From the IMG/VR virus record IMGVR_UViG_3300025133_000076: a DNA stretch of 64,000 nucleotides. One strand, written 5' to 3'. Made by a program: the position numbers and the translations under genes. This DNA is from an uncultured virus (IMG/VR IMGVR_UViG_3300025133_000076). Lineage: Duplodnaviria > Heunggongvirae > Uroviricota > Caudoviricetes. Shown here piece after piece: positions 3,269 through 58,557 of this stretch; positions within the stretch are counted from its first letter, which is position 1, and every line of letters starts with the position of its first letter. A model generated the notes under the pieces. The model was given only the letters and a program-made list of their open reading frames with translations. It did not search any database and was not told the origin of the DNA.

Positions 3269-6200
3269 ATGCTTAGGGTGACAGAGTTAATAAGGTACTT
3301 AAAAGCATCAGGCTTACAGCCTGAGTCTAATGCATTATTGTCTTTAGCACAAGAACAGTTATCTTTGTTTGACTCCAACGAAGACTTGAATCAAAGCTCT
3401 GGCTATACACTATCGGATTCAGAAGACTCAGAGGAAGATCGATATGACTTAAGCGGAATAGAGTTTGAGAGCACGCCAATGCCCGATTCTCAAGTTGGGC
3501 CAAGAAAAGCAATAATGTTAGCGCTACTTAGGGGTATGCCAACTAGAGATAAGCAGGAAATAATTGATGAAGTAATGATGCTTCCAAACGAGCCTGCCAA
3601 TTTTGAGCAGGCAACGCAAAATTACAGAGATGTTTACCCGGAATTAAATTACGAAGCCCCTTCGTATATTCCCCCAAGACAAGTTAGAATGCGTGGGGTC
3701 GAACCTGCTATAAGATTTACGCCGGAGTTAGGGATTGTTGAGGAGGACCTTGCTGAGCTTAGGCTTGAAGACGAAGCATATGAGAAAAGAAAGGAAGAGG
3801 CGATAAAACAGTTTGTCGAAGACCATGGGAGAGAGCCTAGTGCGTGGCAAGCGCAGGATCTTACCCCAGGGAAAAAGAGCGACATTGAAGCAATAGAGAA
3901 AAGGGTTGGAGAGTTTAAGAATCTATTGAGTCCAGAGAAATATTCATCTATGGAGCAAGACCTCAGAAGCCTCTACGAAAGGGTTGAGGGCACCAAGGCT
4001 GAATTTATGAAAATAATAAACGAAGCAAAAGATCAGCTTCCCCCAGAGCCTACGACTCCAAACCCAGAGGAGTTTAGAGATTTCGGTGATTATATAGAAG
4101 ATTTAAAAAGCAGAATTTATTATTATTCGTATGAAGTTCTTAGTAATTCTGCAGGAAAATCAATATTTGGAGCAAAAACGGGGCGGGAGGACAAATATAG
4201 GTATCCAACCCCTCTTATTGAACAGTTTTTTAATGATCATGAAAACAATTGGTTTATAGACTCTGAAAGTCTAAAAGACTTTTTAGAAGAGACACCTTCG
4301 CTAGTATCCTCCCAAGCGAACCAGGGGCGGAACAACTGGAGCTATTGGCGGGTCACTATTACGTCATGGCATGAAGATAAGGCAAGGAAATTAGAAGCAT
4401 ATGATGCCGCCCTAAGAGCGTCGATTGACTCTTACCGGAGGGGGCTGAGGTTTATAAAGAGGCTGAAGAGGGCTTTAAACAGAGAGTTGGAGTCCAGAAT
4501 AGAAGGCTTGCAGAAGTCCGGGCATATGCAGTACGTGGAGCAATATGCTAGGGATGAACTGGATATTGTTTATCAGGATGTTGTAAACACGCTTGAAAAT
4601 CAAATAGAGCCTACTGGTCGATATAATTATTATAATAACCAAATCGGGGCGATGGGGAACGCGACTAAGTACGGCACCAGCGGTGAGCACGCGAGTAAAG
4701 ATATAAGTTTGTTTGATATAAATTTATTATTTCATAATAAAATAAAAATGTATGAGGTCATAAACCATTTTGCATCATTAATATTTACGATAATAAAAAG
4801 AACTTCAGAAAGGGTCCAAGCTGCAATTATTGCCCCTGGGCTTAAAAAGGCTGCGGATGATATTTGTTTGAAAACATTTTATGATATATTTGGAATAAGC
4901 GAAGATGAGATGAGAGGAATGACAACGTTCTCGATGGAGTCTCATTTGTCCGAGGAGCTATCCTATTCGGATCGAAGCACGCAGCCATTTCTCGCAATAA
5001 ATAAAGAATCAATAGAAATTTTAATCAGAGGCTGGTCTGAGGAGGCAGATAGGCATGGTGTAAACTTTAAAGGGATGTTTGTTTATCCTAAATTTTTGTT
5101 AAAAAATCCGGAAACCAAGCCTCTTGTTATAGATCAATTAAAACGCCGCGCTGCAGAAAACCTTTTTACCAGCTTCATCTCTAAGGCCGATGACAGGCGG
5201 AGGCATGTCGTCCAAATTATGATGGGGCTGATAGATGAGGGGGAGATTTCTTTCAAAAACCTAGAAGGCCCTGGTATGGAGCATATTCATAAAAAAATAA
5301 TGTCTTATTCCGAGAAGATTTCAAAAGCTGAAGTTAAACGCCTCATGGCCGAGACTAGAACCTCTCCGTTTGCCCGGAGGAGCAACATGGCCAAAAATGT
5401 CCGTCAAGGCCAGGAGGTCGCCTACGCTAAAGAATCTGGCCTTTACTCTTCTTACGGAGAGCTTATAAGAGTTACTGCATCAGGAGGTAGATTCGGACCT
5501 GATGTTAGAGCCTCGCAGGGCCGGCAGCGGGCAGAGGAGTTTGGAGAGGCTGTTGAGTCCGCATTGGAAGGGATGTCAACCCACCCTGGTTATGATGGCT
5601 CGATTATAGAGGCACACACGCTAAGGTCTTTAAAAGAAGGCCTGAGAGGATCAGTAATCTCTGTCTTCCCAGGGTATATACTTCTTGCGAAGAGCCTGAT
5701 GCATGAGCTGATCTATTATGATGGACTTAGCTTCCGGGGGCTCCATTCCCCTCTCGTCGATGGGCCAGCCGGCGAGTCGGGCGACGAACCAGACGCCCGG
5801 TCGGTAGAGACACTCATAGCAAATAAAGATAATTTTCTATCAGAATTGGGCATTCCGAGGTTTATAATAAACTCCAGCAAAGGTTACCAGTCATCATCAA
5901 CTTGGCCTATAATTAATCATTTATTTCAAGATGTTCTGCCGGAAGGAGAAATGGATACTGATCATAGGGGATTGCCGCAAAAGCTTCAAGAGGGGAAGTT
6001 TCTGGATGAAAATTTAATTAATTTAATAAATAAAATGGAATTTATCAACATAGTATCCGAAGAAATGTTTAAGGAGATAGCTGAAAAATATAAAAAAGAA
6101 GGTATTTTTGCAGACAGATATAACGATACGCAGCCCTTCTTTCGCGATCCCCCTGGAAACGGCCGGCCCGGGAGTGAAGCCAGTTCTGCGACCGCTTGGG

Positions 6201-7888
6201 ATATTGATGTGAAACAGTTTTATAGAAAATATATAAAATTATCTGAAGAACTAAATGATATTGTTACTATCGCAATGGAGATACCTAAGGCAAAAGACCA
6301 ATTTCAAAGCATTGTTTATGCAGGAAGAATTCAAAATATTTTTGAGCAGAGAATGTCTTTTATGAAAGAGGTCGGACCCAGAGGTATGGCTAAATCTTAT
6401 TCTGTCTTAAACAAAAGGTTGAGAAATAAAAAAATGCCTTTTAATAAATTAATAAAGATTTGGGAAAGAGAATTAACAGAGCAAATGTCTGACGAGGTAG
6501 GTTTGGTCACGGCCTCCCTGTTCGAAAGAGGCAGGTATCATCATGGTCGTACCGGGAATGGCCCATTTGTCGATAAATCTTTGTCATTTTATTCCCAGGC
6601 CAGCCGTGGGTTGAGCGACATTAGCAACCCTGCTTATTCTGTATCAATCCTTATAGCCAATAAGTTTGAGCTTTCTCATGCTCAACAATTTGAAAAAATA
6701 TTAAATATAGCAGAAGAAGAGTATTCAAAAATATCCGAAAGAAACTTCGGATATCTTGAGATTAAGCAGTTTTTTAACTTAATATTTACAAATATGGACG
6801 GACTAAAGGGAAAGCTCGCAAAAATATTTAGAATATCATCATTTGCTCATAATAGGGGCCATGGTTTGAGCACAGGCTATTTCGCAAGAATGATGAATGA
6901 TCCTAATTTCAAGGATTTTGGCAAAAATAATACTGTTAATAAATATTTTGATATGTGTACAAAATTAGCCAAACTAGGTGGGCTTGCCAACATAAGAAGG
7001 CGATACCAGCCCATAATTGATTCCTTGCTTGTATCAAAAATGCTTTCTCGCGGCTTTTACAAAAGAGTTAGAGAGGCCTATAGAATTTGCAGAGAAGGAC
7101 TTAGGATAAGGCCCAATTTAGAAGGGTTATCTGAAGATTCTTTACAAGAGCAATTAAAGCTCAGAAAGCTGATGGAGACTGTAGATGTGGAGCTTACTGC
7201 GGTTAGAGATTATTCCGCATATGAAGAATACAATGAGCATGTCGTTACCAAAGACAAAAAATTATTTGATCTTAACTGGGAAGTAAAAAGTAAAAACTTT
7301 AGATTCAGAGTCTTAAAGACTTACGATCCAACTCACTTTAAGGTCGGCGTAGATACACAGTGTTGTCAGCGCCTCGGCGGCTTGGGCGAAGGGGCCGCAA
7401 TTGACTCCTATGTAAACCCATTGGCGGGAGTTGTTCTTTTGGAGTTCTACATCAATGGGTCTTGGGGCCTCGCCGCACAGAGCTACTTTCATTATGTGCC
7501 TCAAGATAATGGGTATATTTTAGATAATGTTGAAACTAATAGATCATATATAGGAAGCTCTAGAGAGATTACTGGCTATTCTAAAGAAACTCTTTATGCT
7601 ATGTTGGCGAAAAGAGTTGAGGAAAACTTTAATATAGAATACTTTTTATCTGGAAAGGGATATTCTGAAATTGAGGTAGGATCATACGACAGCAAAAGGC
7701 TGCCATATGATCCTCGTGATTTCGCATGGAGAAAAAAATATACAGATTGGAGGGCATCGGGCAGCATAAATCTACTGTCTCCAAAGTTTGATGTTCCAGA
7801 ACTTCCAAAAGGAAAGAAGGATAGAGTTAAGAAAATAAGCCAATTTCATAATCAGGTTTTTAGCCCGAAAGAGGCCGCCTGTGTTTAG
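3269..7888 (+). CDS. Very large hypothetical protein (variant leader; C-terminal CC-motif, possibly GNAT-like domain)
   Basis: 1539 aa, AGGAG RBS; C-terminal GVDTQCCQRLGG...ILDNVE segment. Confidence 0.85.
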   Translation: MLRVTELIRYLKASGLQPESNALLSLAQEQLSLFDSNEDLNQSSGYTLSDSEDSEEDRYDLSGIEFESTPMPDSQVGPRKAIMLALLRGMPTRDKQEIIDEVMMLPNEPANFEQATQNYRDVYPELNYEAPSYIPPRQVRMRGVEPAIRFTPELGIVEEDLAELRLEDEAYEKRKEEAIKQFVEDHGREPSAWQAQDLTPGKKSDIEAIEKRVGEFKNLLSPEKYSSMEQDLRSLYERVEGTKAEFMKIINEAKDQLPPEPTTPNPEEFRDFGDYIEDLKSRIYYYSYEVLSNSAGKSIFGAKTGREDKYRYPTPLIEQFFNDHENNWFIDSESLKDFLEETPSLVSSQANQGRNNWSYWRVTITSWHEDKARKLEAYDAALRASIDSYRRGLRFIKRLKRALNRELESRIEGLQKSGHMQYVEQYARDELDIVYQDVVNTLENQIEPTGRYNYYNNQIGAMGNATKYGTSGEHASKDISLFDINLLFHNKIKMYEVINHFASLIFTIIKRTSERVQAAIIAPGLKKAADDICLKTFYDIFGISEDEMRGMTTFSMESHLSEELSYSDRSTQPFLAINKESIEILIRGWSEEADRHGVNFKGMFVYPKFLLKNPETKPLVIDQLKRRAAENLFTSFISKADDRRRHVVQIMMGLIDEGEISFKNLEGPGMEHIHKKIMSYSEKISKAEVKRLMAETRTSPFARRSNMAKNVRQGQEVAYAKESGLYSSYGELIRVTASGGRFGPDVRASQGRQRAEEFGEAVESALEGMSTHPGYDGSIIEAHTLRSLKEGLRGSVISVFPGYILLAKSLMHELIYYDGLSFRGLHSPLVDGPAGESGDEPDARSVETLIANKDNFLSELGIPRFIINSSKGYQSSSTWPIINHLFQDVLPEGEMDTDHRGLPQKLQEGKFLDENLINLINKMEFINIVSEEMFKEIAEKYKKEGIFADRYNDTQPFFRDPPGNGRPGSEASSATAWDIDVKQFYRKYIKLSEELNDIVTIAMEIPKAKDQFQSIVYAGRIQNIFEQRMSFMKEVGPRGMAKSYSVLNKRLRNKKMPFNKLIKIWERELTEQMSDEVGLVTASLFERGRYHHGRTGNGPFVDKSLSFYSQASRGLSDISNPAYSVSILIANKFELSHAQQFEKILNIAEEEYSKISERNFGYLEIKQFFNLIFTNMDGLKGKLAKIFRISSFAHNRGHGLSTGYFARMMNDPNFKDFGKNNTVNKYFDMCTKLAKLGGLANIRRRYQPIIDSLLVSKMLSRGFYKRVREAYRICREGLRIRPNLEGLSEDSLQEQLKLRKLMETVDVELTAVRDYSAYEEYNEHVVTKDKKLFDLNWEVKSKNFRFRVLKTYDPTHFKVGVDTQCCQRLGGLGEGAAIDSYVNPLAGVVLLEFYINGSWGLAAQSYFHYVPQDNGYILDNVETNRSYIGSSREITGYSKETLYAMLAKRVEENFNIEYFLSGKGYSEIEVGSYDSKRLPYDPRDFAWRKKYTDWRASGSINLLSPKFDVPELPKGKKDRVKKISQFHNQVFSPKEAACV

Positions 7889-12457: not shown

Positions 12458-15400
12458 ATGCTTAAAGAATTAATTAAAATCGCAAATGAATTAGATAAGC
12501 GCGGGCTTACAGAGCAGGCTAACGCCTTGGATAAGCTTGCTTCTAAGGCTACGGCAAAGGCGGCCAAGGGTATTAACTGGAGCGTTGCAGAAAGGGCATT
12601 ATCTGATTCAGGGGTGGAGCCCTCAAGGGATGATATTATCTCTCAAATGATGGCGGAACCGGCATTTTCAATTGAAAATATAGAGGAAATTCATAATCTT
12701 GAACCAGAACATGACTTTGGTATGGAAGAAGATTTTGTAAAAAGATTAAATAAAAAGGAATTAATATTCTTAGAGCTTGGCGGCTGGCTAAAGGGGCATA
12801 ATAATAGCGTGTCGCAAATAAAAGATTATCTTATTGCCGAAAAGGATCTTAAAAAACCCGGTGATTTATTAAATATAATAAATGTGGATTTAACAAGCCC
12901 AAGCAGTATAGCGGAAGAATTTGAAAAACTGAATAAAGCTCAAGAGAAATGGCATAAAGAAGCAGGCGAAAAGTCGGGTGAAGATAAGTACTTAACACAC
13001 GAGGTTGTCCATGACTTTGGGGACGGATGGGTTGTCGTTTACGTTCCTGCGGTTGGAGAAGGTCCTAATTATAAGGGAAATAAAAGTAAGTCGAATGATC
13101 GTACAGTAGAGGGTAATATCTGTGGACTTTGCCTCGGTGAAAAGCAGGGGTTGTATCAAACTAATGAAAGTGGCAAAATATATTCAGTTAGAAACCCAAA
13201 TAATGAGCCAAAAGTAACTATCAGAATTCAAAAATCAGGTCCGTCGTATATGGGCGGCTACGGAGGGTTTTCTTTGGCGGAAGCGAAGGGGAAGAATAAT
13301 TTGTCCCCAGCAGTCCCTGGGGCCCGCCGCGCCAAAGAGTGGTTCGATTCATTTAACGATGCAGGCGATAAGACCGAACTTAATTATAAAAATAATTATG
13401 ATTACAGAAAATTTCCCCCAGTTACTATAGGGGCTGCAAAAAAAGCTTACGAGAAGGCCGCAGAACCGACAGCGGGGAGGGGTATCATCCTGCCCTTTTC
13501 GCGACGAGAGCCTTGGACAAAAGGCTGGATAGTACATTGGTATAAAAAGGGCATAAGCGAAATAGATAAAGATATTGAAAAGGCTGTATCTGAAAATGAT
13601 TCAATGATATTTAGAAGTGGTTTTGCAAAAAAATACAAGGAACTTGCCGAGCCGGTAGTGAAGCATTGGGCGAGACCATCACTGATTGCTGAAGGCCACC
13701 CGGAGCATATCTTTGTGGGGCGTTCACAACGAGATTTTGAGCATGAAGTATGGAAGACATATAGGAAAAGCGATTGGATGCAAGAGGCCGTCGACACCCT
13801 TTTTCGAAAGGATCTTGATAGAGCTTTATCATTGGGGCTTCATTTGTATCCAGAGTACAAAGAGTTCGGCCGTGCGGGAGTGGAGAACGGGCTGGATAAC
13901 AAAGGGTCCTTATTAATGACTCGGTTTTATGATGCAAAACTAGACAAAGCTTATCCAGACCTTGGCAAAAGATTAGCGGAAACATTCATAGACACAAAGC
14001 CTTATGAGTTCTTTGAAAAAAACCTTGAAGAAAAGTATCCCGAGCTAAAAGAGAAGGCCGCATTTGCTTGCGCGGCAATAGATATAAGCAAGCACCTGGA
14101 GAGAGAGGCTGCAGCCCTCAGGCCAGGTCTGGGGACGCACAGTGATCATAGAGATGTTTCGTCTGGATTTAGGTTTTTTAAATCAAATCTTCATATTAGA
14201 GGATCGGCTGAAGCAGGGAAGGAGTTGGCAAAAGTTATTGTAGCCGACCGTCCGGCCGCCTCCTTTGAAGCTTTGACTGCAGCCCCCAACGTGTACCAGC
14301 CCGCTTATGACGACCCCGATCACCCTCAGCGAAGTTCTCTTATTGATATTTATCCAGACCTAGCGGATATCGAGCTTGTTACAAAGATTGCTTCTTTGAA
14401 TCCAGAAATATTTTTTAATCAATACTTTGATAAAAAGTTAGAGTATAAACATCTTGCCCTAGATGCGGCGAAATCTCTTTTAAGCAAGCGGCCGGGGCGA
14501 TATTTTTTAAGCAGCGAAAGCAAAGAGGACGATGGCCTCGAGCCGGGGCGGAAAGTGGCTGAGAGGCCAGATATTTTTCTTGATTACTACAATGAGTTAG
14601 AGCCTTTTGCTGTAAAAAGATTAATGGAAGCCGGTAGCGAAGGCCTCTTTTTTGAGGCCGTGCAAAAAGGCCGGACATGGCCTGCAAAGTATATGAGGGA
14701 CCATGGGGATGAGGTCGTAAAGGCTCTGCTGCAGCGTGCTGATCCAAACAGGATAAGGCTTGATGGCGGGGGAGACCCGAGAAAGATAGAGGACGAAGGG
14801 AGAGACTTGTCAGAGCGTGGCAAAAAAGCCATGTTTTACCTCGACCATAAAATAGCATTTGAATATTTTAATGATTATATATTAGGATACCGCTCTAACT
14901 CTATAGAAAGAGATTCCACTGGAGCCTGGGTTCAAAAGGGCGAGGATGCTGCTTTTATAAGCGAAAAAGATCGTGAGAGATATCGCGAATATGGGTCGAA
15001 GATAGTCGAGCAATGGGCTGTAAAATATCCAGAAGGATATTTTCAGGAGAAGTTAGGGCTCAAATATCCTCAATTTAAAGAATTGGCAATAAAATCTTTG
15101 TTATTTCACAGGATATCGGGACCGATAAATATAGATAATCTAGATAAGGATGCGGTCAAAGATGCCCTTGATATTTATGGTGAAATTGATGTTTTGCCCC
15201 CAGAGGTTGAGCGTATTTTGAAGGCAACCGCAGAGATATATCCGGAATTATATTTAGATGCAGAATTGTATGAGATATATCCTGAGTTAAAAGAGAGCGC
15301 AATTTATGCTTTAGCGGAGAAAAATCCTAAATTATTCTTTGACAAAAATTATGATATTGAATTTCCAGAATTAAGAGGGGCTGCAAGTGCAGCTGCAAGC

Positions 15401-15670
15401 GCCCGATACAATGAGCATGCAGAGTTGCCGGAAGAATCCCCTATAGATTATAGAGAAATTCCGATGGGCGAAGAGATAGAGGATATAGATGAAGCTGATT
15501 ATTTCAATGCAGAATACGAAGAGAATTGGGATCCAGACGATCCAGATAAATTTGTTATTTCTGGATATAATCGAAAGCTGGCTAATCTAAAAATCTGGTT
15601 AATTAAGAATCATCATACAAGTGAGGCAAGACGGTTGATGAGAATTATAGGGGGTGCTAAAAATGGATAA
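12458..15670 (+). CDS. Large leader-tagged protein with PcfJ-like segment and FF...YPEL helical repeats
   Basis: N- and C-terminal leader motifs; EGNICGLCLG...KIYSVRNPNNEPKVTI; repeated YPEL/YPDL. Confidence 0.8.
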   Translation: MLKELIKIANELDKRGLTEQANALDKLASKATAKAAKGINWSVAERALSDSGVEPSRDDIISQMMAEPAFSIENIEEIHNLEPEHDFGMEEDFVKRLNKKELIFLELGGWLKGHNNSVSQIKDYLIAEKDLKKPGDLLNIINVDLTSPSSIAEEFEKLNKAQEKWHKEAGEKSGEDKYLTHEVVHDFGDGWVVVYVPAVGEGPNYKGNKSKSNDRTVEGNICGLCLGEKQGLYQTNESGKIYSVRNPNNEPKVTIRIQKSGPSYMGGYGGFSLAEAKGKNNLSPAVPGARRAKEWFDSFNDAGDKTELNYKNNYDYRKFPPVTIGAAKKAYEKAAEPTAGRGIILPFSRREPWTKGWIVHWYKKGISEIDKDIEKAVSENDSMIFRSGFAKKYKELAEPVVKHWARPSLIAEGHPEHIFVGRSQRDFEHEVWKTYRKSDWMQEAVDTLFRKDLDRALSLGLHLYPEYKEFGRAGVENGLDNKGSLLMTRFYDAKLDKAYPDLGKRLAETFIDTKPYEFFEKNLEEKYPELKEKAAFACAAIDISKHLEREAAALRPGLGTHSDHRDVSSGFRFFKSNLHIRGSAEAGKELAKVIVADRPAASFEALTAAPNVYQPAYDDPDHPQRSSLIDIYPDLADIELVTKIASLNPEIFFNQYFDKKLEYKHLALDAAKSLLSKRPGRYFLSSESKEDDGLEPGRKVAERPDIFLDYYNELEPFAVKRLMEAGSEGLFFEAVQKGRTWPAKYMRDHGDEVVKALLQRADPNRIRLDGGGDPRKIEDEGRDLSERGKKAMFYLDHKIAFEYFNDYILGYRSNSIERDSTGAWVQKGEDAAFISEKDRERYREYGSKIVEQWAVKYPEGYFQEKLGLKYPQFKELAIKSLLFHRISGPINIDNLDKDAVKDALDIYGEIDVLPPEVERILKATAEIYPELYLDAELYEIYPELKESAIYALAEKNPKLFFDKNYDIEFPELRGAASAAASARYNEHAELPEESPIDYREIPMGEEIEDIDEADYFNAEYEENWDPDDPDKFVISGYNRKLANLKIWLIKNHHTSEARRLMRIIGGAKNG

Positions 15671-19368: not shown

Positions 19369-20329
19369 TTTGGACTCCCTGATTGAGATTGCGTGATATT
19401 CTCATGATACGATGCAACTTCGTTGATAAGTTATTAAAATTACTATATAGGTATAATTTATCCGGCACCGGTTCTTTAGTAAAAAAATGTTTAACCTGGT
19501 GTTGATCAACCGGACAGAATACCGAGCCCTGGGCCAGCTGGGCCGCCAATGTTGCAAGGCCACTATTTGATAAAAACAAATATTCACTACACGCAAGGTC
19601 ATTGAGGTCTCTCTTTAACTCATTAGTATCACCGACCGAGATTTTTACATTTTTAATAGTCAACAACTCTTTTAAGTCTTCCCATCGTTTTTTCTCTACA
19701 ACAATTCTAATATCTGGAACAATACGATGAGTACTACAAATCTTATTTATCACATTTATTAAATTTTTGTAGTACTCACATGGCCAGGCCCGGTTGTGCG
19801 CCTTGTGCCCCGGGTACGCCACGTCACCTCTCCGGACGTGTATAGAAAACCTATTTTTAATTAGGTTATTTTTATTGTTAGAATAATATATATTCCGAAT
19901 TCTCTCATGAGCCTTTTGAAAAACACTATATTGTTTCCGCTCCCATATTTGATAGGGGTATATTCTCGGAATTCCCGATAATTCAATTAACGTAGATTCT
20001 TTATTATTGCTTTTGTATATTCTGTTTATTTCATCAACCAGATCATTGACTGCATTTTTCGACATCCCTTTGTAATATTTGCCTTTATTGATTTTACAAC
20101 TGTTTTTAGTATTTGCTTTAGGTAAAACTTTGAATTTTAAAAAATCTTCTTTAGTAATAATGCTTAAAATCTGTCTGTCCGATATTCCCCAGGAATTATG
20201 ATAAACTATATTACAGCTTAACATTTCTGCCAAGATAAAGCAAGAGATTAACGTCTTCATCTGGTGCCCTAGTCTCCCGCCACTAGGTAAATCAATGGTG
20301 ATATATAAATTTTTATTTTCCAAATTCAT
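19355..20329 (-). CDS. Alpha-1,2-fucosyltransferase-like glycosyltransferase (GT11-like)
   Basis: GGRLGHQM, SIHVRRGD and SNSG motifs; start taken at ATG 20329, coupled to upstream stop. Confidence 0.75.
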   Translation of the reverse strand: MNLENKNLYITIDLPSGGRLGHQMKTLISCFILAEMLSCNIVYHNSWGISDRQILSIITKEDFLKFKVLPKANTKNSCKINKGKYYKGMSKNAVNDLVDEINRIYKSNNKESTLIELSGIPRIYPYQIWERKQYSVFQKAHERIRNIYYSNNKNNLIKNRFSIHVRRGDVAYPGHKAHNRAWPCEYYKNLINVINKICSTHRIVPDIRIVVEKKRWEDLKELLTIKNVKISVGDTNELKRDLNDLACSEYLFLSNSGLATLAAQLAQGSVFCPVDQHQVKHFFTKEPVPDKLYLYSNFNNLSTKLHRIMRISRNLNQGVQNEVS

Positions 20330-20936
20330 ACCCGAAATACTCAATGTCTTTTGCATACTTTTCCGCAACGATTTGACGAGTTTCGTCATCGTAGTATTCG
20401 GTGTAGTGTTTGTGTTTTGATTTGTTCGCCCATGGAAGCTGTTGCCGTGGAATTCCAATCTTGTTACAGGCGGCGTTGAAGTCTTCTTGGAGATTTTCAA
20501 ATCTAATTACATAATCAAGTTTATGACTTTTATATTTTTCTACATAGAAATAATCAGCACATGACCTTCGAGGTAGATTATTCATAAATCTTCTTTTATT
20601 AAAAGATTTAGGCCCTTTCCAAAAATAAAATGAAATAGCACGATCCCATGGATTCCTTGTCGCTCCAAGCTTGAAATAGTCTTCAATATCTCCATACTCT
20701 TCTCTCCATTTCGCGTAGTATTGATTTAATGTCGTATGCTTTTTTATTTTAAATTTTTCATCAGATGATCTAATTGCAAATCTATCTAGATAAGATTTAC
20801 TATCTATATTATATTGCGCTTGTTTTTCATTTGCTTCAATATTATCTTCAGAATATTCTACAAGGTAATTTTGTATAGAATTGCCTGCAGTTTTAGGTAC
20901 GTGTACAAAAATAAATTTATGTTTATGACTTATCAT
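20313..20936 (-). CDS. Sulfotransferase family 2 protein
   Basis: FIFVHVPKTAGNS, RNPWDRAIS, IRFENL, YYDDE...DIEYFGY. Confidence 0.85.
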   Translation of the reverse strand: MISHKHKFIFVHVPKTAGNSIQNYLVEYSEDNIEANEKQAQYNIDSKSYLDRFAIRSSDEKFKIKKHTTLNQYYAKWREEYGDIEDYFKLGATRNPWDRAISFYFWKGPKSFNKRRFMNNLPRRSCADYFYVEKYKSHKLDYVIRFENLQEDFNAACNKIGIPRQQLPWANKSKHKHYTEYYDDETRQIVAEKYAKDIEYFGYEFGK

Positions 20937-21661
20937 TTTTCATTCTCCAAATTCATACCCGAAATACTCAATGTCTTTTGCGTACTTTTCCGCAACGATT
21001 TGACGAGTTTCGTCATCGTAGTATTCGGTGTAGTGTTTTTTTTGATATTTTTTTGCGTGTGCTAATGAGTGATTATCACAGTCAATATTTATTGACTTAC
21101 AAAATTTTATCAAATCAGTATGTAAGTGGCGAAATCGAATCCAGTCTGTAATTATATTTTTACCATTATATATAACCCGTGAGGACAAGGTTTTATCCGG
21201 ATGGGTTTGTAACCAACTAGCAAACTCCTTTTTAGTTTCATTTCTATATATAGCCATATTATAGAACGATACAGCCCTGTCCCAACTGTTTCTTTCGTTT
21301 GCTACAAATTTATAATTTTTAAATTTTTCATAAGGGATTAGTTTAAACAATTGGCCCGCAGTCATATGGCCTCTTATACGAGCCCCGTTGTTCCCAATAT
21401 TTTGGTAATTTCTAGGTCGGTGGGATTTTGATTCAACGGGGAAGCATCTAGTTACAACATCGTTATCATCACAAAAGGGCTCTAGAAAATACTCCGTACT
21501 TGTCCCTGCGACTTTTGCCAACTTTATATATATGAATTTATGTTTATATGATATAATCATTTCTCATTCTCCAAATTCATACCCGAATGTCTCAATGTCC
21601 TTTGCGTATTTTTCCGCAATGATTTGTCGTGTCTCATCATCATAATATTCAGTGTAGTGTT
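20320..21661 (-). repeat. Three ~90-bp direct repeats encoding the sulfotransferase C-termini (~20320-20411, ~20946-21037, ~21570-21661)
   Basis: First two copies differ at one position by eye; third is more diverged. Confidence 0.85.
20940..21560 (-). CDS. Sulfotransferase family 2 protein
   Basis: FIYIKLAKVAGTS, RNSWDRAVS; shared C-terminus. Confidence 0.8.
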   Translation of the reverse strand: MIISYKHKFIYIKLAKVAGTSTEYFLEPFCDDNDVVTRCFPVESKSHRPRNYQNIGNNGARIRGHMTAGQLFKLIPYEKFKNYKFVANERNSWDRAVSFYNMAIYRNETKKEFASWLQTHPDKTLSSRVIYNGKNIITDWIRFRHLHTDLIKFCKSINIDCDNHSLAHAKKYQKKHYTEYYDDETRQIVAEKYAKDIEYFGYEFGE

Positions 21662-25773: not shown

Positions 25774-26715
25774 ATGAGTAAAGAACGAATTAAGGAAACC
25801 TGCGAGACTATCGCCCTTCAGATTATCACGGCACTTGACAATCCGCCCGAAGATGGCACCCGATGGGTCATGCCATGGGATAAAAGTCTCGCTGGCGGTA
25901 TGCCGATGAATATTATCACTGGCCGGGCTTATGGAGGAAACTTCAACGGATTTATGCTGACTATGGCAGGAATCCAGTATGGCGACCAGCGTTGGGCAGG
26001 GTTCGGACAGTGGAAGAAAAGCGGAAACCTCGTCCGAAAGGGTGAGACAGGTACTCCGATTTTCTTCCCGAAGCTGGCCTGCGGCACCTGTGGCAAGCCC
26101 TGTGGTTTCGCGAAGAAGTGCAAGCCCTGTGGCGCGAACCTCAAGGCCAAAGGGGCCACGAAGTTCATCGGGTTTGGCAGTTCGTACACTTTCAACAACC
26201 AGCAGACGGTGAATCCATTGCCGACAGTTGACGTGAAAGAGGTTGACCCGAATGTGGGTTACGAGGCTGCGGCGGCACTTGTCGAAGGCATCGAGGCAGA
26301 CTTCCGCACGGGTGGAGCGAGAGCATTTTACTCCCCGCGTGAGGATTATTTGATGGTCCCGGCTCCCGGAGCCTTCCTGACTGTCGCTGACTTTTGGGCT
26401 ACGGTTATCCATGAGCACGGTCACTGGACCGGAGCAAAGGGCCGTCTCAACCGAAAGGGTATCACTGACTTTTCAGGGTTTGGTTCGGAGGCATACGCGT
26501 ATGAGGAGCTTGTAGCCGAGATTGGCGCAGCCTTCACCTGTGCCTACTTGGGAATCAAGCGAGAGGGTTTGATGGACAATCATGTGGCCTACCTGACCAG
26601 TTGGAAGAAGGCCCTCAAGGATGACCCGACCGTTATCCAGCGGGCCGCAAACGAGGCCGGACAGGTTATGCGCTACCTTATCAATAAGGGTGAGGGGTCC
26701 CGCCCGACCGCATGA
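25774..26715 (+). CDS. ardC: ArdC-like antirestriction / ssDNA-binding protein with zincin domain and Cys-rich insertion
   Basis: WVMPW, N..TGRAY.G.N, WAGFGQW...VRKGE, AFYSP..D, IHEHGHWTG, YAYEELVAEIGAAF, AYL.SW. Confidence 0.85.
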   Translation: MSKERIKETCETIALQIITALDNPPEDGTRWVMPWDKSLAGGMPMNIITGRAYGGNFNGFMLTMAGIQYGDQRWAGFGQWKKSGNLVRKGETGTPIFFPKLACGTCGKPCGFAKKCKPCGANLKAKGATKFIGFGSSYTFNNQQTVNPLPTVDVKEVDPNVGYEAAAALVEGIEADFRTGGARAFYSPREDYLMVPAPGAFLTVADFWATVIHEHGHWTGAKGRLNRKGITDFSGFGSEAYAYEELVAEIGAAFTCAYLGIKREGLMDNHVAYLTSWKKALKDDPTVIQRAANEAGQVMRYLINKGEGSRPTA

Positions 26716-39161: not shown

Positions 39162-39608
39162 ATGAGCGACAAGACCAATATTTTTGCTAACGAGCACAAT
39201 GAGAGTCCAGCACAGGTTATCCGTCAAACGATGGCAGTGTCTTTGGATGATGATGGCTCCCCAATTATTAGCTTTGCTATGAATCGTGGAAAGGGTAGCG
39301 GGTCGCAGGTTCTTCCTGTCGAGGAATACCGAGAGTATGTTGAAACTCTTGGCGGCTATGCTGATAACGGGATTCCCGAAACAGCGGAACAGGAATTGCT
39401 GTCGGCTTCCGAAACTGTCCGCCGAACAATTAAGAATGAAGATGGCGTGATTTCCTTCCGAGTTCGTAGCGGAAAGGGTGCGAAACCTGCAAAGCTGCCT
39501 GCTTCTGACTTCTCCGAGGTCGTTGACCTTCTCCGAGGTACTTTGGATGCGGTATGTGCTGCCGGTGAGCAGTTGGCTCCTTCGGCTTCCGATGAAGATA
39601 GCGAGTAA
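39162..39608 (+). CDS. Triplicated hypothetical protein, copy 1 (internal duplication with GKG motifs)
   Basis: NESP..IRQTM.VSLDDDG.P..SFA.NRGKGSG...FRVRSGKGAKPAK. Confidence 0.85.
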   Translation: MSDKTNIFANEHNESPAQVIRQTMAVSLDDDGSPIISFAMNRGKGSGSQVLPVEEYREYVETLGGYADNGIPETAEQELLSASETVRRTIKNEDGVISFRVRSGKGAKPAKLPASDFSEVVDLLRGTLDAVCAAGEQLAPSASDEDSE

Positions 39609-39753
39609 ATAAGTTATAGCCTCCGCGTGCAAACACACGCGGAGGCCCCACGGGGAGGCACAGGGTAAAAGGTGTCTCAATTTTCTAACTCTTGTATTTT
39701 CAAATCCATATCGGGGGTGTCTATGTTACAATCAAGTGACGCAGGAGTTAGTT

Positions 39754-39954
39754 ATGTCGAATAACGACAGCAGTGAGCATCGAAAGTTTGTATATCAATT
39801 TGCCAGAGAAGCACTCAAGCGCAAGGCTACCTCGGAAGAGATCGCATACGCACTTGAGTTGTTGGCACCCCTGTCCGGCCATAAAGCCTTGGGGTTCAGA
39901 GTTCGCTTGCAGCGCAAAGCAGATGGCGAGCCTTGGAGTTGGTCGAAAATGTAG
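39754..39954 (+). CDS. Small hypothetical protein
   Basis: AGGAG RBS. Confidence 0.55.
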   Translation: MSNNDSSEHRKFVYQFAREALKRKATSEEIAYALELLAPLSGHKALGFRVRLQRKADGEPWSWSKM

Positions 39955-40126
39955 GTGCTCCCCGCAGGGAGGCATGGGGTTACAGATGCCTCTTCTAAAA
40001 AATAAATTATTTGGTTGTAATTGTCTGCTCGCATGGGTATGATAATCCAACAGGGGCGATTGTGAAACTTTTGCCCAACCTTGAGGTAGTTTTCTACTTC
40101 TAATTCTGCACCACCTATATATGTGT

Positions 40127-40775
40127 GTAAGCAGATTGATCATTGAAATTTTAATTTGACCCTTGCTCTCGGGTCATAAAACCCCAGTGGAATTACCGGC
40201 TTTGGGGCCTCTTCGGAGGATAGCGAGAACCCTGTTTAGGAGAGATGCGTTTGCACGCATCTGCCGCCTAACTGGAAAGGGGAATGAGTTAAGGGGCGTG
40301 GTAGTCCTGAGAATCATTTAGTAACTGGACGCATGAGCCTACATACCACTGTAGGAGTGCTGCCGAAAGTATCTGCGGACTTGTAGGTTCATCGTGGAAA
40401 CGGGATAAGGGCAAACCAGACTAAAAGTCTTGGTAAGCTGAAGAAATTTGGCAGAATTTAACTTCTGATGACAGAAGGCTCTCAAGCAGAACTGGCAACG
40501 GGTCTGCTGTCCCGAAAGGGGCTATTGGGATTCTCTACCAAGGGGATGAACGGTAGCGTGTGACAAGAGGGGGAAGTGTACAGCTTACCAACTTGAGCAC
40601 AGAATGTCATTGCAGTCGTATTGTTTGCTGTTTAACGCCTCCAAAGGGCAAAAACAGGGAGCAAGCCAGTGCAGGGTGGTTACTCACCCGTGTGTGTACA
40701 TCTAACCGAAAGGGACAGGTCAATAGACTTGATGGTCACTGGCAGAAGGAATAGACATGCTAAATCCTTCCCCCT
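40127..40775 (+). ncRNA. Large highly structured ncRNA (GOLLD/ROOL-like scale)
   Basis: Promoter motif upstream and terminator downstream, no credible ORF; many hairpins with UUCG/GAAA/GCAA loops and long-range pairings. Confidence 0.75.
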
Positions 40776-40778
40776 TCC

Positions 40779-40814
40779 TAAAAGGAGTCCCGGTTCGCTG
40801 GGACTCCTTTTTTT
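40779..40814 (+). terminator. Intrinsic terminator of the large ncRNA
   Basis: AAAAGGAGTCCCGG-TTCG-CTGGGACTCCTTTTTTT. Confidence 0.85.
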
Positions 40815-40896
40815 ATTTCAGGGCAAAAGTTTTACAAATACATTTACACTTCTGTTTCTACACCAGCTATCACTGAGTGTCAGCATGGAGTGTCAA

Positions 40897-41535
40897 ATGA
40901 ACTTAAAAGAAGCAAAATATATAACAGGACATAAGTCTGGTTTAGGCGCACCATCTAAAATGCCTGGCTTTTCAACCAGCCTCAGCGCCTATGATTGCAA
41001 GACGGGTTCAAAGCTGGCCAAAATAGAGGGAAGCGTCTGCAGCAAGTGCTATGCATTCCGCAACAACTATAACTATCCTAATGTAAAGTCTGCGCATCAA
41101 GCAAGGCTTGCGGCCTTAGAGCATCCCCAGTGGGTTGAAGCCATGACCCTACTCGTCGGTCATTACACAGAGGAGGCCGACCCATATTTTAGAATCCATG
41201 ATAGTGGCGATATACAGTCCAAAGAGCATCTTGTAATGTGGATTAATGTTGCACGGAACTTGCCCTGGGTAAAGTTTTGGATGCCTACAAAAGAGGTTCG
41301 ATGGACAAAGGATGTTCGGGCTAAGACTACAGACTGGCCTAAGAATCTTGTCGTTAGATTGTCAGCCCCAATGGTTGGTCAGGCTCCTCCTCAAAGTATG
41401 GAGAACTTTCCTACCTCGACAGTCCAGTCTGATACTGGATTTAGTTGCGGAGCGCCTACACGCGGAAACAAGTGCGGGCCATGTAGAGCGTGTTGGATAT
41501 CTACTGTTAAGAACATTGATTATCACGCTCAATAA
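40897..41535 (+). CDS. GP88-like phage protein (radical-SAM-like Cys motifs)
   Basis: SKMPG, C.TG.KL....GSVC..CYA, FRIHDSGD, W.PTKE, C...CRACW. Confidence 0.75.
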   Translation: MNLKEAKYITGHKSGLGAPSKMPGFSTSLSAYDCKTGSKLAKIEGSVCSKCYAFRNNYNYPNVKSAHQARLAALEHPQWVEAMTLLVGHYTEEADPYFRIHDSGDIQSKEHLVMWINVARNLPWVKFWMPTKEVRWTKDVRAKTTDWPKNLVVRLSAPMVGQAPPQSMENFPTSTVQSDTGFSCGAPTRGNKCGPCRACWISTVKNIDYHAQ

Positions 41536-41618
41536 ACCAGAGGACAAACGCTATGTTCCATAACCCGCACACGCGGGCAAAAGATTTACAATTGAAATGT
41601 AAATCTTTTGCCCAGGGT

Positions 41619-54092: not shown

Positions 54093-54710
54093 ATGATTTC
54101 GGACAAATATAAATGTATCTTTATCCATATAGAGAGAACCGGAGGCACTTCTATAGAGCGTGCTTTATTTGGTATAACTTCGGACAAAGCCCCCCCTATA
54201 GACAAGGAGATAAAGCATCTTACCGCAAAAGAATCTCTTGAGCATTATGGTGAAGATAAATGGAATAAGTACTTTAAATTCTCTATCGTCAGAAACCCCT
54301 GGGACCTTGTGGTATCTAATTTCTTCTTCCCCTGGTTTCATGGGCCCGGCGATCATATTGACTTTAAATCTTGGGTTCAACAATTGAAGGCCGACTCCAA
54401 TAAGGTGATTAGCCACAAGAGAACCCCTCAGCTAAAGGCCGTAAGTATAAATGGATCGATCTCTATTGATTATATAATTAGATTTGAAACTTTAAAGGAG
54501 CAATGGGAGGAAGTCCGGTCTAAGCTTGGAGTAAGCTATTTACTGACAAATAATTGGAACCATAGGCTTAAGAAGTATAGTTATTTAAAAGATAGAAAGC
54601 CTTATCCTTATTATTATGATGATGAAACAATCTCTATTGTTGCCGAAAGGTTTAAGAGAGATATAGATTATTTTGGATATAAGTTCGGAGAAAATATAAA
54701 TAAAGTTTGA
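54093..54710 (+). CDS. Sulfotransferase family 2 protein
   Basis: IFIHIERTGGTS, VRNPWDLVVS, IRFETL, YYDDE...DIDYFGY. Confidence 0.85.
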   Translation: MISDKYKCIFIHIERTGGTSIERALFGITSDKAPPIDKEIKHLTAKESLEHYGEDKWNKYFKFSIVRNPWDLVVSNFFFPWFHGPGDHIDFKSWVQQLKADSNKVISHKRTPQLKAVSINGSISIDYIIRFETLKEQWEEVRSKLGVSYLLTNNWNHRLKKYSYLKDRKPYPYYYDDETISIVAERFKRDIDYFGYKFGENINKV

Positions 54711-55679: not shown

Positions 55680-55946
55680 ATGTTAAAAGAACTCATTAAA
55701 ATAGCGAATAAGTTGGACGAAAGAGGGTTGGCAAAAGAGGCTATTGGACTTCCTAGCATCCCGTCCTCTACCGACCCGCGAGAATGGACTTCTTATGCTA
55801 AAAAGAATTGGTCGAGGCTATATGGGCCTCATAAGCCCATAGTTAAGGAGTTACTGTCTAAAGTTAGGGATATTGCAAAGGACTATGACAGAGGGGCGAG
55901 TGCTCCACAGGTGGCTGAAGCAATCAGGCATAATGATGAGTTGTAA
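55680..55946 (+). CDS. Protein with truncated leader
   Basis: MLKELIKIANKLDERGLAKEA runs directly into IGLPSIPS. Confidence 0.7.
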   Translation: MLKELIKIANKLDERGLAKEAIGLPSIPSSTDPREWTSYAKKNWSRLYGPHKPIVKELLSKVRDIAKDYDRGASAPQVAEAIRHNDEL

Positions 55947-58557
55947 ATTAGATACATTACAGTCATGGCTTATAAGCAATGGATTTATAAATGAATCTGT
56001 TGAATTACACATTATAAAAACAGCTATATCTTTAGAAGAGGCAGCCATGAGGCTCGACCAAAAGATAATAGGAAAGATTATTAACGGAGCATTGTGGAGG
56101 CCTGATAAATCTGTGTCTCAATATCTTTATGACTTCGCGGGCCACAACCCGGCTGGTAACGATATTTTGCCAGAATTGAAAAAGAGAGTTTCATATCTTC
56201 TTTTAAATATGGTCCCAAAAGACTTGCTTCCAGACCAGAAGGGTACAGCCTTAAGCTGGTTAATAAGCCTAGCTAACAGGACTGCCTCTCCAGATCTAGA
56301 GATTGGTCGCGGATTCGGCAGAGCTTTAGTATTAGGGGCTTTAGATGACCTGATGCACCTTGCCAAGCACACAAACTTATCAGAGGGCGACTCTCTCTCC
56401 GCTTTTGATAAACAGTATTTAAATACATATCTAGAAAACGGATATGTCGAGCCAAAAGAGGGGGATCCACACCTCCGCAACTTAGACCGAATAAGCTCTC
56501 TTGATGATCACCCGGCCAGTACCGCAAGGAATAATCTAGAGATATTCTTTCATTATAAAGATCTTATGAGCCAAAAGGATCTGCTTTCTATGGAAACATT
56601 TGGAGACTTACAATTCACAGTAGACGAGGCAAGGCCCAAGATTAAGCAAAAGCAGGAAAAGAAAAGGCACCTAAATGTAGAAGAGGGAGCTGTATTCTTA
56701 CAAGGTGGTTTTAAGAAGAGCGAACATACCGGAGAGATCCTATATAACTACAAGGTGACTACAGGCAAAAAGGATGCAGACGGATCGTTCCTTGGAGCTG
56801 TTTATTGGACAAACAAGTTAAACAGGGCAAGCGCAAGGCAGGTTGATGCAATAAAAAATGGGCTTGAGTTAAGAGCCGAGTCTAAAGAAAGTGCAAAAAA
56901 GTATTTTGCGGGAATAGTTTGCACAACTGGGCGGGAAAAATGCCCCCCTGATATTGTCGCAGAAATGATAGGCAACTTAGATGCAGAGAGGCTGGGTCCA
57001 GCCTTTGAGTATTCAGAGGGGCTTGTTATAGCTGAAATTCACAACAAAGGTGCCGCCTGTATGCTGGGGTCACAATCAAACCAGTGGTGTACTGCCGCTC
57101 CGGGATTAGACTACTTTGACGATTATTATAAAAAAGATGATCCACTGTTTTTCTTTGCCGACGAATCTCGGGATGAGATATTTCAATTTAGTTACGGACA
57201 AGGGGATTTTGCCGATGAAATGAATAATCAGGTCGATGCGACAGTTAAAAGAGAATTGCACAATCATCTTCTCCATGTAGTTGATATTGACAAGTATCCG
57301 AATGTCAAACTTATGACGGCAGATATTGTAATCTCTGACTGGGAAACTGATGGGCCAGATTTGAGAGCAGCGATTAATTATACAGACATCAGCAATATGA
57401 GGCAGGATTTACTAACAAGACTTATAGCGCATCCAAATATTCAAGAAGATATGCTAATAGACGCGGTAGACTCCCTTGCGCAAAAGGACCCTCTGGTATT
57501 TTTTAGCGAACATCTTTATGATAAAATAAATAACAATAAAAAAAGAGCTGAGATAATCAGTCATGCAGCTACAGCATTGGCATACAATGACGACTCTGTG
57601 GGCAAATCAGTTAAATTTTTTGACATTCATATAGAGGGAGGAGCAGGTTCTGGCCGCTTTAGTGATGGGCGGCTAAAAGACTTGTTTCCAGATCTGGCAG
57701 AGGAACTTGCAGAGCGCCTCTCTAGCTCCACCTCCTTTATACGCTCATTTTTATATAGAGATTACCCAGAGTTTACAGCCAGAGGGATAGAGTCGCAGAT
57801 AGCTGACATAAAACTGAACGGTCAAGTGCCACATAGAGCACGAGGTTTGGAAGAGCTTATTCAGCTTTCCTCTACAAAGTATGAGAAGGAGCTTTTTAGA
57901 CTTGCAGAGACAATAGCTCAATACTCTCCAGCGTTTTTCTTTAAAAATAAATTACATAAAAAATATCCAAAGATAGCAGAAAGCACCCCGTCGTGGCTTC
58001 CGGAATCCGCCTACAACCGCCGAAGTGTAGCGGATATGTTTTCCGGTTCAAATGCATTTTGGAACCTTGAGTTATATTTGGATTATCCAGAGATAGCAAA
58101 AAAGAGAGCATCAGAGCTGCGTCCAGAGATATTCTTTAGCATTAAAATTGAAGCCCCAGACCCTTCCAGGGATGGCATGGGCTACTATGGTCAGGTTGGA
58201 TTACAAACCATATATCCAGAAGAGGCAATAGTAAAGGCTCAATATATGGCGGATCATATGCCTGGCAGATTCTTTAAACATAATATGGAAAAGTCGTATC
58301 CAGAAATAGGTCGTAAAGCAGCAGAACATATGGCTATAAATAATCCAAACAGATTCGCCACAGTACGATTACACGAAAGATACCCGGAATTTGCACATCA
58401 TGTAAAGGCGGCTATTGATGCCAGAATAATCTCTGATATAACCCTGCATGGTGGAGGGAAGCTATCAGACTGGCTTGAGCAACATGCCTACGATCCTCGT
58501 CGTCATATAGTCGAAGAGTTATACGGAAACAATGAACCGGATGAGGCTGATGGTTGA
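55933..58557 (+). CDS. Large leader-variant protein with WCT motif domain and FF...YPE repeats
   Basis: KLDTLQSWLISNGFINES...IIKTA; AACMLGSQSNQWCTAA...YFDDY; repeats resemble 12458 ORF. Confidence 0.85.
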   Translation: MMSCKLDTLQSWLISNGFINESVELHIIKTAISLEEAAMRLDQKIIGKIINGALWRPDKSVSQYLYDFAGHNPAGNDILPELKKRVSYLLLNMVPKDLLPDQKGTALSWLISLANRTASPDLEIGRGFGRALVLGALDDLMHLAKHTNLSEGDSLSAFDKQYLNTYLENGYVEPKEGDPHLRNLDRISSLDDHPASTARNNLEIFFHYKDLMSQKDLLSMETFGDLQFTVDEARPKIKQKQEKKRHLNVEEGAVFLQGGFKKSEHTGEILYNYKVTTGKKDADGSFLGAVYWTNKLNRASARQVDAIKNGLELRAESKESAKKYFAGIVCTTGREKCPPDIVAEMIGNLDAERLGPAFEYSEGLVIAEIHNKGAACMLGSQSNQWCTAAPGLDYFDDYYKKDDPLFFFADESRDEIFQFSYGQGDFADEMNNQVDATVKRELHNHLLHVVDIDKYPNVKLMTADIVISDWETDGPDLRAAINYTDISNMRQDLLTRLIAHPNIQEDMLIDAVDSLAQKDPLVFFSEHLYDKINNNKKRAEIISHAATALAYNDDSVGKSVKFFDIHIEGGAGSGRFSDGRLKDLFPDLAEELAERLSSSTSFIRSFLYRDYPEFTARGIESQIADIKLNGQVPHRARGLEELIQLSSTKYEKELFRLAETIAQYSPAFFFKNKLHKKYPKIAESTPSWLPESAYNRRSVADMFSGSNAFWNLELYLDYPEIAKKRASELRPEIFFSIKIEAPDPSRDGMGYYGQVGLQTIYPEEAIVKAQYMADHMPGRFFKHNMEKSYPEIGRKAAEHMAINNPNRFATVRLHERYPEFAHHVKAAIDARIISDITLHGGGKLSDWLEQHAYDPRRHIVEELYGNNEPDEADG

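Follow-up and report, generated by a model that had tools for sequence, protein, structure and literature searches.

A large structured RNA of uncultured marine phages that looks like a new companion to GOLLD and ROOL

What is encoded at positions 40127-40814 of a 64,000-nucleotide stretch of DNA from an uncultured virus (IMG/VR record IMGVR_UViG_3300025133_000076; the whole stretch is called the window here)? An earlier note, made from the sequence alone, had read this part as an ornate non-coding RNA with its own promoter, boxA-like leader and terminator, either a divergent relative of GOLLD or ROOL or a new large RNA class, and had proposed Rfam models, a collection of homologues and metatranscriptome coverage as checks. 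We followed these up by comparative analysis and found that the observation is real: the locus encodes a large structured non-coding RNA and is transcribed. Both the RNA and the option of a new class were borne out, whereas three of the proposed helices and the partner proposed for a pseudoknot were wrong.

A family of structured non-coding RNAs

The gene was placed at 40138-40818 on the + strand, much as first proposed, and the RNA species abundant in RNA libraries was shorter, covering about 40170-40760 (Table 1). ORFs within 40127-40814 were 31-64 aa long. The longest ORFs differed between 67 homologues, none being kept, and codon periodicity was absent across the same set (variability per codon position 0.215/0.215/0.213), in agreement with the earlier statement that the stretch holds no credible ORF. 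The + strand folded at -252.7 kcal/mol, compared with -210.8 +/- 5.9 kcal/mol for dinucleotide shuffles (z -7.1), and the - strand more weakly (z -4.85). At many pairs of the family G-U exchanged with G-C or A-U, an alternation that works only on the + strand and thus assigns the RNA to it; the fold z-scores, the orientation of the terminator and the neighbouring tRNA genes, 54 of 57 of them co-oriented with the RNA, agree with this.

Relatives were collected with three search patterns. A 19-mer from the conserved core retrieved nine IMG/VR contigs, on which the copies aligned with window positions ~40140-40776 at 66-75% identity. A second pattern, independent of the 19-mer, matched 20 loci, including 12 on additional contigs, and a third found at least 120 marine metagenome stretches and 22 IMG/VR viral contigs (23 counting L081, a copy cut by the contig end). 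The third pattern occurs in all 67 representatives, including all 18 that were recovered without it. Eight of the 23 viral contigs were 150-316 kb long and carried one copy each, and a profile search of 110 loci likewise found exactly one copy per locus. Copies cut by contig ends (13 of the 110, L081 among them) were left out of the counts and 31 copies were merged with a retained copy to which they were at least 97% identical, leaving 67 distinct copies that were 61-82% identical to that of the window. From the 5' motif to the 3' hairpin the family measured 616-681 nt, with a G+C content of 42-60%, and 178 of 634 alignment columns were at least 95% conserved, spread along the whole RNA and often situated in unpaired junctions.

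Searches of three family members with blastn against 50,697 GenBank phage records, representing cultured phages, returned no match. Cellular genomes were scanned with a 22-mer found in 22 of the 67 representatives, an exact-word scan with a sensitivity of about 25-33% that does not imply absence from cells; the sole match was a 101,404-bp contig of a metagenome-assembled genome (MAG) labelled Halobacteriovorax (L110 / L088). Because an IMG/VR viral contig is also 101,404 bp long, this is probably a phage contig binned into the MAG, in which no 16S gene was found. A search of the openly accessible literature found no published description of the family; passages of a paper on a new lineage of large aquatic phages (PMC12619734) had no bearing on the RNA.

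Covariation, nested fold and pseudoknots

The 67 distinct copies showed strong covariation. RNAalifold placed 154 pairs on 19 sequences, and double compensatory changes (one or more per pair) occurred in 93 of these; on 67 sequences it placed 173 pairs. All 253,116 column pairs were ranked by APC-corrected mutual information, blind to structure; 80 of the 173 pairs lay above the 99.9th percentile, and the nested fold accounted for 20 of the 25 highest-ranking pairs and for 42 of the first 50. The refined structure comprised 35 helices with 174 pairs, of which 156 are nested and the others form three pseudoknots. In this structure 96.1% of cells were paired compared with 83.7% in shuffles, none of 500 of which reached that value (67 sequences, alignment A2). 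Sliding the partners lowered paired cells to 38.6-46.6% and reduced the pairs changed on both sides from 101 to 28-36; the covariation score was 0.500 for the refined structure and 0.087-0.132 for comparison. Two RNAalifold pairings were dropped: 40408-12 with 40427-31 was a misalignment artefact, since a variable local hairpin misaligned by MAFFT (40416-22/40426-33) exists in 65 of the 67 sequences, each folded singly, and 40690-92 with 40697-99 clashed with pseudoknot PK-A.

Table 1. Features of the RNA locus (positions in the window)
Feature	Position	Strand	Basis or description
Candidate sigma-70-type promoter	40015-40043	+	TTGTAA-17-TATGAT, 9/12 consensus matches
Second, weaker promoter candidate	40116-40121	+	-10-like TATATA
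Large structured non-coding RNA gene	40138-40818	+	
BoxA-like leader motif	40138-40148	+	window GATCATTGAAA; family consensus GTTCTTTGAAA or GTTCTTTAACA
P1 hairpin	40158-62 with 40171-75	+	95% canonical in 67 sequences, few changes
PK-C	40166-70 x 40223-27	+	67/67 canonical at 4/5 positions; UA/CG/GC exchanges
Abundant RNA species	40170-40760 (~591 nt)	+	RNA-library contigs
Hyper-conserved core	40372-40415	+	helix 40372-78/40392-98, 13-nt loop, then GGAAACGGGAUAAGGGC junction
PK-B	40384-90 x 40454-60 (7 bp)	+	67/67 canonical at all 7 positions
Long-range helices	40461-67/40613-19 and 40470-73/40605-08	+	6/11 pairs above 99.9th percentile of covariation
PK-A	40692-97 x 40755-60 (3' hairpin loop)	+	67/67 canonical at 5/6 positions
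3' hairpin	40745-40770	+	all five pairs with at least 3 pair types
Extra strong intrinsic terminator, specific to the window copy	40780-40818	+	14-bp stem, 7 G-C pairs, 4-nt loop, T-run

The family possesses at least three pseudoknots, each supported by covariation. PK-A, formed by the loop of the 3' hairpin, showed up to five pair types (at 40696/40756: UA 31, GC 20, AU 8, UG 4, GU 4), and three of its pairs ranked 8, 12 and 22 among all column pairs. In PK-B, the pair 40386/40458 alternated between GC (31), AU (18) and GU (17). PK-C takes one strand from the loop of the P1 hairpin and carries a U-C mismatch at 40169/40224 in the window copy. In the nested fold, the two long-range helices enclose a multi-branch domain that contains the UCCCGAAAGGGG hairpin (40510-21), identical in 67/67, and a hairpin with the palindromic loop GUAC (40578-81), also kept in 67/67. 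The helix 40699-702 with 40731-34 covaries. The hyper-conserved core reached depth peaks of 373 and 233 in two RNA runs, contig depths that do not rank expression, and is common to many divergent contigs; in the RNA libraries such contigs had the region ~40354-40421 in common, which was the source of the first search word. A column pair between two hairpins (40426 x 40684) ranked 6th of 253,116 and was 97% canonical, and could be a loop contact or lineage coupling.

Seven of the ten helices in the earlier note stand. Those of CCTC/GAGG, AGATGCGT/ACGCATCT, AGACT/AGTCT (within a CCAGACU/AGUCUUGG hairpin of 65/67 sequences), AGCAGA/TCTGCT and GGGTG/CACCC were kept and covaried in the family, as did the 3' hairpin GAAGGA/TCCTTC, and the CCC-GAAA-GGG hairpin was kept with a sequence invariant in 67/67, without covariation. 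The three that failed are window-specific alternatives not kept by the family. Instead of ATGAGCCTACA/TGTAGGTTCAT, covariation favoured a local hairpin (40338-43/40350-55), with 40384-90 pairing in PK-B; the CTTCTG/CAGAAG helix gave way to the long-range pairing of 40461-67; and of GTGTACA/TGTACAT one side was invariant and the other covaried with the 3' loop. That loop had been matched with an upstream ATGTC (GACAT x ATGTC), a pairing canonical in only 0-37 of 67 sequences; its actual partner is 40692-97.

Transcript, ends and flanking signals

Twenty public sequencing runs contained at least half of the sampled words of the stretch, and 14 of them, under ten study codes, were RNA libraries, with marine or seawater as the label throughout. 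One DNA run (X3) and an RNA run from each of three studies (X12, X4 and X5) were compared over 39400-41600. A single 592-nt contig of X12 covered 40170-40760; contigs of X4 covered 40167-40385 and 40387-40760, and those of X5 40170-40405 and 40384-40731. All three RNA runs had zero depth at 39548-40139 and 40806-41600. DNA carry-over was rejected as the source of this cover, because X3 covered all 30 bins, flanks included, and the RNA runs skipped the flanks. Metatranscriptome coverage therefore confirmed a transcript at about 40170-40760. Upstream of the RNA, the DNA run X3 had a depth spike of 309, compared with about 10-20, and several loose ends at 39918-39991, a hairpin-plus-A/T stretch directly after the upstream small ORF, which suggests a short element recurring in the community or genome.

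In X4, the contig carried a 21-nt loose end before 40167 that we take to be an Illumina adapter, its last three letters coinciding with 40167-69; on this assumption all three studies would share a fragment end at 40170. Coming from assembled contigs, the two ends (40170 and 40760) are a weak hint. Should they be genuine, the abundant species would start with the final base of the PK-C strand and stop with that of PK-A, which would place the boxA motif, most of PK-C and the 5' strand of P1 in a removed or separate leader. Conserved, covarying nucleotides at 40138-40169 fall outside the abundant species. Alternatively, the end at 40170 could be a reverse-transcription stop or an assembly effect instead of leader removal.

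The claim of an own promoter was weaker in the window than in its relatives: the two candidates of the window matched the consensus poorly (Table 1), whereas many relatives carried a canonical -35 (TTGTACA or TGAACA) and -10 (TATAAT-like) ending 5-12 nt before the 5' motif, and TATAAT-like hexamers peaked 18, 15 and 12 nt upstream of it. The 5' motif itself, conserved at the 5' edge of the family, follows the pattern G[CT]TCTTT[AG]A[AC]A. This pattern matched the leader of Escherichia coli rrsH at GCTCTTTAACA (1 match vs 0.01 expected), 133 nt before the start of the 16S gene, which is the place of the rrn boxA. As an rrn-type boxA the motif is thus supported at the family level, to judge by its sequence. 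In the window alone, the copy deviates at two positions, and matches to the degenerate pattern were not significant (4 vs 1.95 expected). Given that background, an exact GTTCTTTGAAA within an ORF of 1070 aa (14008-14018, +) is probably there by chance. Two members of a divergent clade (L090 and L102) have the motif 25-33 nt further upstream, which argues for a linear signal and not a strand of a fixed helix. Most boxA positions can pair with 40658-62 (54-65 of 67 canonical, nearly invariant, without covariation), through which the motif could have a structural role.

At the other end, the 3' hairpin is an intrinsic terminator hairpin in most family members: at least 6 T occurred in the following 9 nt in 25 of 67, and many others had C-rich tails and then a T-run. 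The tail of this hairpin is degenerate in the window, where an additional strong terminator (hairpin 40780-40811, then a T-run) bears out the earlier claim that the RNA has its own.

Role, alternatives and known systems

Short flanks of 24 of 66 loci contained tRNA genes, within 300 nt in 14 of them. In three relatives (L109, L151 and L169) a tRNA ended 2-6 nt before the 5' motif. In the L169 stretch 46-1473, the RNA lies between tRNA-Met and tRNA-Gly without a spacer, the latter being the first of five spacer-free tRNA genes after the RNA (Gly, Ser, Leu, Asn, Asp); wedged among tRNAs in this way, it belongs to one tRNA operon. L169, L151, L161 and L134 are all located downstream of tRNA-Met. 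The window has seven scattered tRNA genes. No protein neighbour was conserved, the best cluster occurring at 15 of 67 loci and tracking sub-lineages. A cluster of ~175-aa ORFs near the RNA at 13 of 67 loci (in L087, for example, just downstream) resembles, judged by eye, an FKBP/SlyD-type prolyl isomerase.

Window genes included SprT-like, OmpA-like and metallophosphoesterase genes. Also encoded were an ArdC-like anti-restriction protein with a zincin-like metallopeptidase domain (25774-26715, +) and three paralogues (20313-20936, -; 20940-21560, -; 54093-54710, +) that match a PHROG galactose-3-O-sulfotransferase family. Four large ORFs (4-2532, 3269-7888, 12458-15670 and 55873-58557; 842, 1539, 1070 and 894 aa) had no PHROG or Pfam match, and tblastn of the 1070-aa protein against 50,697 GenBank phage records gave no match; the phage lineage of the window seems unrepresented among isolates. 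No hallmark structural phage gene was identified in the window. The surroundings look phage-like, and an origin in phages is suggested by the IMG/VR membership of the relatives and a few phage-type genes.

We consider it very probable that the locus represents an uncatalogued stable-RNA family of uncultured marine phages, many of them jumbo phages, for which we propose the following working model. The RNA would form a stable-RNA transcription unit, driven by a sigma-70-type promoter of its own or included in a tRNA operon. On balance we favour recruitment of host Nus antitermination factors by the 5' rrn-type boxA, a role suggested by the motif, through which the long untranslated transcript may escape Rho. 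The terminator hairpin would end transcription and its loop would lock into PK-A, after which the precursor would be trimmed to the pseudoknot-bounded core 40170-40760; that the trimmed ends reflect real processing is fairly probable. The mature RNA would act without a dedicated protein partner, most probably through an RNA-built architecture like that of GOLLD and ROOL, and would serve the phage take-over of the tRNA and translation economy during infection. Self-assembly, drawn by analogy apart from the invariant GUAC loop, is possible rather than probable. A more far-reaching version seems to us rather unlikely: a third independent class of giant phage RNA, in which a self-processing precursor yields an RNA-only particle that manipulates tRNAs or ribosomes during marine jumbo-phage infection. 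Here the cleaved-off leader (boxA, P1 and PK-C) might act as a guide, the pseudoknots might define the cut sites, and the GUAC and GAAA loops might drive assembly.

The ends of the abundant species may instead be the work of the RNA itself, as a ribozyme that cuts at 40169/40170 and after 40760, or that acts in trans on the RNAs of tRNA operons. Both ends lie exactly at the edges of covarying pseudoknots, a U directly precedes the 5' end in 64 of 67 sequences, many of the 178 highly conserved columns fall in unpaired junctions, and tRNA operons, in which the RNA sits, need processing. Host RNases would explain trimmed ends, known from contigs only, equally well, however, and models of RNase P, group I/II introns and small self-cleavers revealed no similarity, so that we judge a ribozyme unlikely. 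Abundance raises another possibility. High contig cover relative to flanking mRNAs in RNA libraries, together with co-location with phage tRNA genes, would suit a decoy or sponge for a host factor (a tRNA-targeting defence nuclease, a ribosomal protein or the ribosome), and PMC12286853 describes GOLLD as a ribosome-binding RNA and OLE as one that holds a ribosomal protein. A search for tRNA-like elements within the RNA found none, the two internal calls of ARAGORN being flanking tRNAs that overlap the edges of the match, and we regard the decoy as unlikely to a similar degree.

Whether the RNA might be a very divergent GOLLD or ROOL, homologous beyond the reach of Rfam models, was addressed by searches at several levels of stringency. 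With Rfam 15 at gathering score the window contained only its seven tRNAs, and a permissive search of 39900-40900 gave only a sub-threshold terminator look-alike (BjrC68 at the 40780-40818 terminator, 20.9 bits compared with a gathering score of 39). Neither GOLLD (RF01998) and ROOL (RF03087) nor RNase P and group I/II intron models matched the window at E up to 10; tmRNA (Rfam and ARAGORN) and models of known self-cleaving ribozymes gave no match either. Among 29 relatives Rfam found only tRNAs (20 searched at gathering score, 9 at E up to 5). Carriage by phages, co-oriented tRNAs, a ROOL-like size, many pseudoknots and the lack of a protein partner would fit such a homologue, and a marine GOLLD sits downstream of tRNA-Met according to PMC12286853, as do L169, L151, L161 and L134. 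In the same account GOLLD exceeds 800 nt and is conserved in its 3' region but variable in its 5' region, whereas the present RNA is shorter and its columns of at least 95% conservation run over the whole length. Distant homology is thus very unlikely; because the models of GOLLD and ROOL fail for both the window and the 29 relatives, the second option of the earlier note, a new large RNA class, is supported.

That the RNA is part of a neighbouring gene, as a long cis-acting leader or as a 3' trailer, was suggested by a GP88-family gene on the same strand (40885-41535), which starts 67 nt downstream of the RNA. None of 80 loci with GP88 homologues carries the RNA or similarity to it, and the RNA is therefore not tied to this gene. 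With no conserved neighbour at other loci, terminators between the RNA and downstream genes, and RNA-library cover that ends before the GP88-family gene, this explanation is hardly credible. Finally, that the stretch encodes one or more small proteins, for which the window offers its ORFs of 31-64 aa, is close to impossible in view of the missing codon periodicity, the absence of a conserved ORF and the compensatory nature of the stem changes.

The sequences therefore appear to be best read as a new RNA class of the GOLLD/ROOL kind, encoded by phages, stable and processed. To our knowledge very few bacterial or phage RNA classes are so large (rRNAs, RNase P, group I/II introns, OLE, GOLLD, ROOL, HEARO and raiA), and each has proved to be a ribozyme or the core of a ribonucleoprotein, with RNA-only nanocages as a recent addition. 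The family described here would be an apparently unrelated additional class with the same habit of living among phage tRNA genes, and would thus add one more independent case, the second or third, to the question of why large phages maintain giant RNAs next to their tRNAs. It may also provide the first link of such an RNA to an rrn-type antitermination signal and to precursor trimming. For practical work it has the merits of abundance in ocean RNA surveys, at least 67 diverse sequences, contig-defined ends and a length of ~600 nt that suits cryo-EM.

Among known systems, phage T4 offers species 1 and 2 (rnaC and rnaD), stable non-tRNA RNAs of roughly 120-140 nt that are cut from the precursor of the T4 tRNA operon. 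By this general description the present RNA likewise lives among phage tRNA genes but is far larger. Like the boxA of rrn leaders, its 5' motif opens a long, stable RNA that is not translated; E. coli rrsH matches the family pattern, whereas the window copy is off at two positions. GOLLD and ROOL come closest. In the available part of PMC12286853 both are large RNAs of phages or prophages near tRNA islands, of unknown function, that form homo-oligomeric RNA-only nanocages, and ROOL is ~600-660 nt long with multiple pseudoknots, very high expression and no known protein partner. As far as that account goes, the family shares with ROOL its size, carriage by phages, tRNA neighbourhood, pseudoknots, strong expression to judge by RNA-library contigs and lack of a conserved protein neighbour, and differs in being marine, in the boxA-like leader, in the terminator loop that enters a pseudoknot and in matching no model. 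With GOLLD, as described there, it has in common carriage by phages (23 IMG/VR contigs), tRNA islands (24 of 66 loci) and a position downstream of tRNA-Met, but it is 616-681 nt long, conserved throughout and without a model match. We therefore file the family under neither, as both covariance models fail and GOLLD differs in length and conservation. By analogy, the palindromic GUAC loop present in 67/67 may be a hint of a nanocage, and the family seems to join GOLLD and ROOL as a further giant phage RNA.
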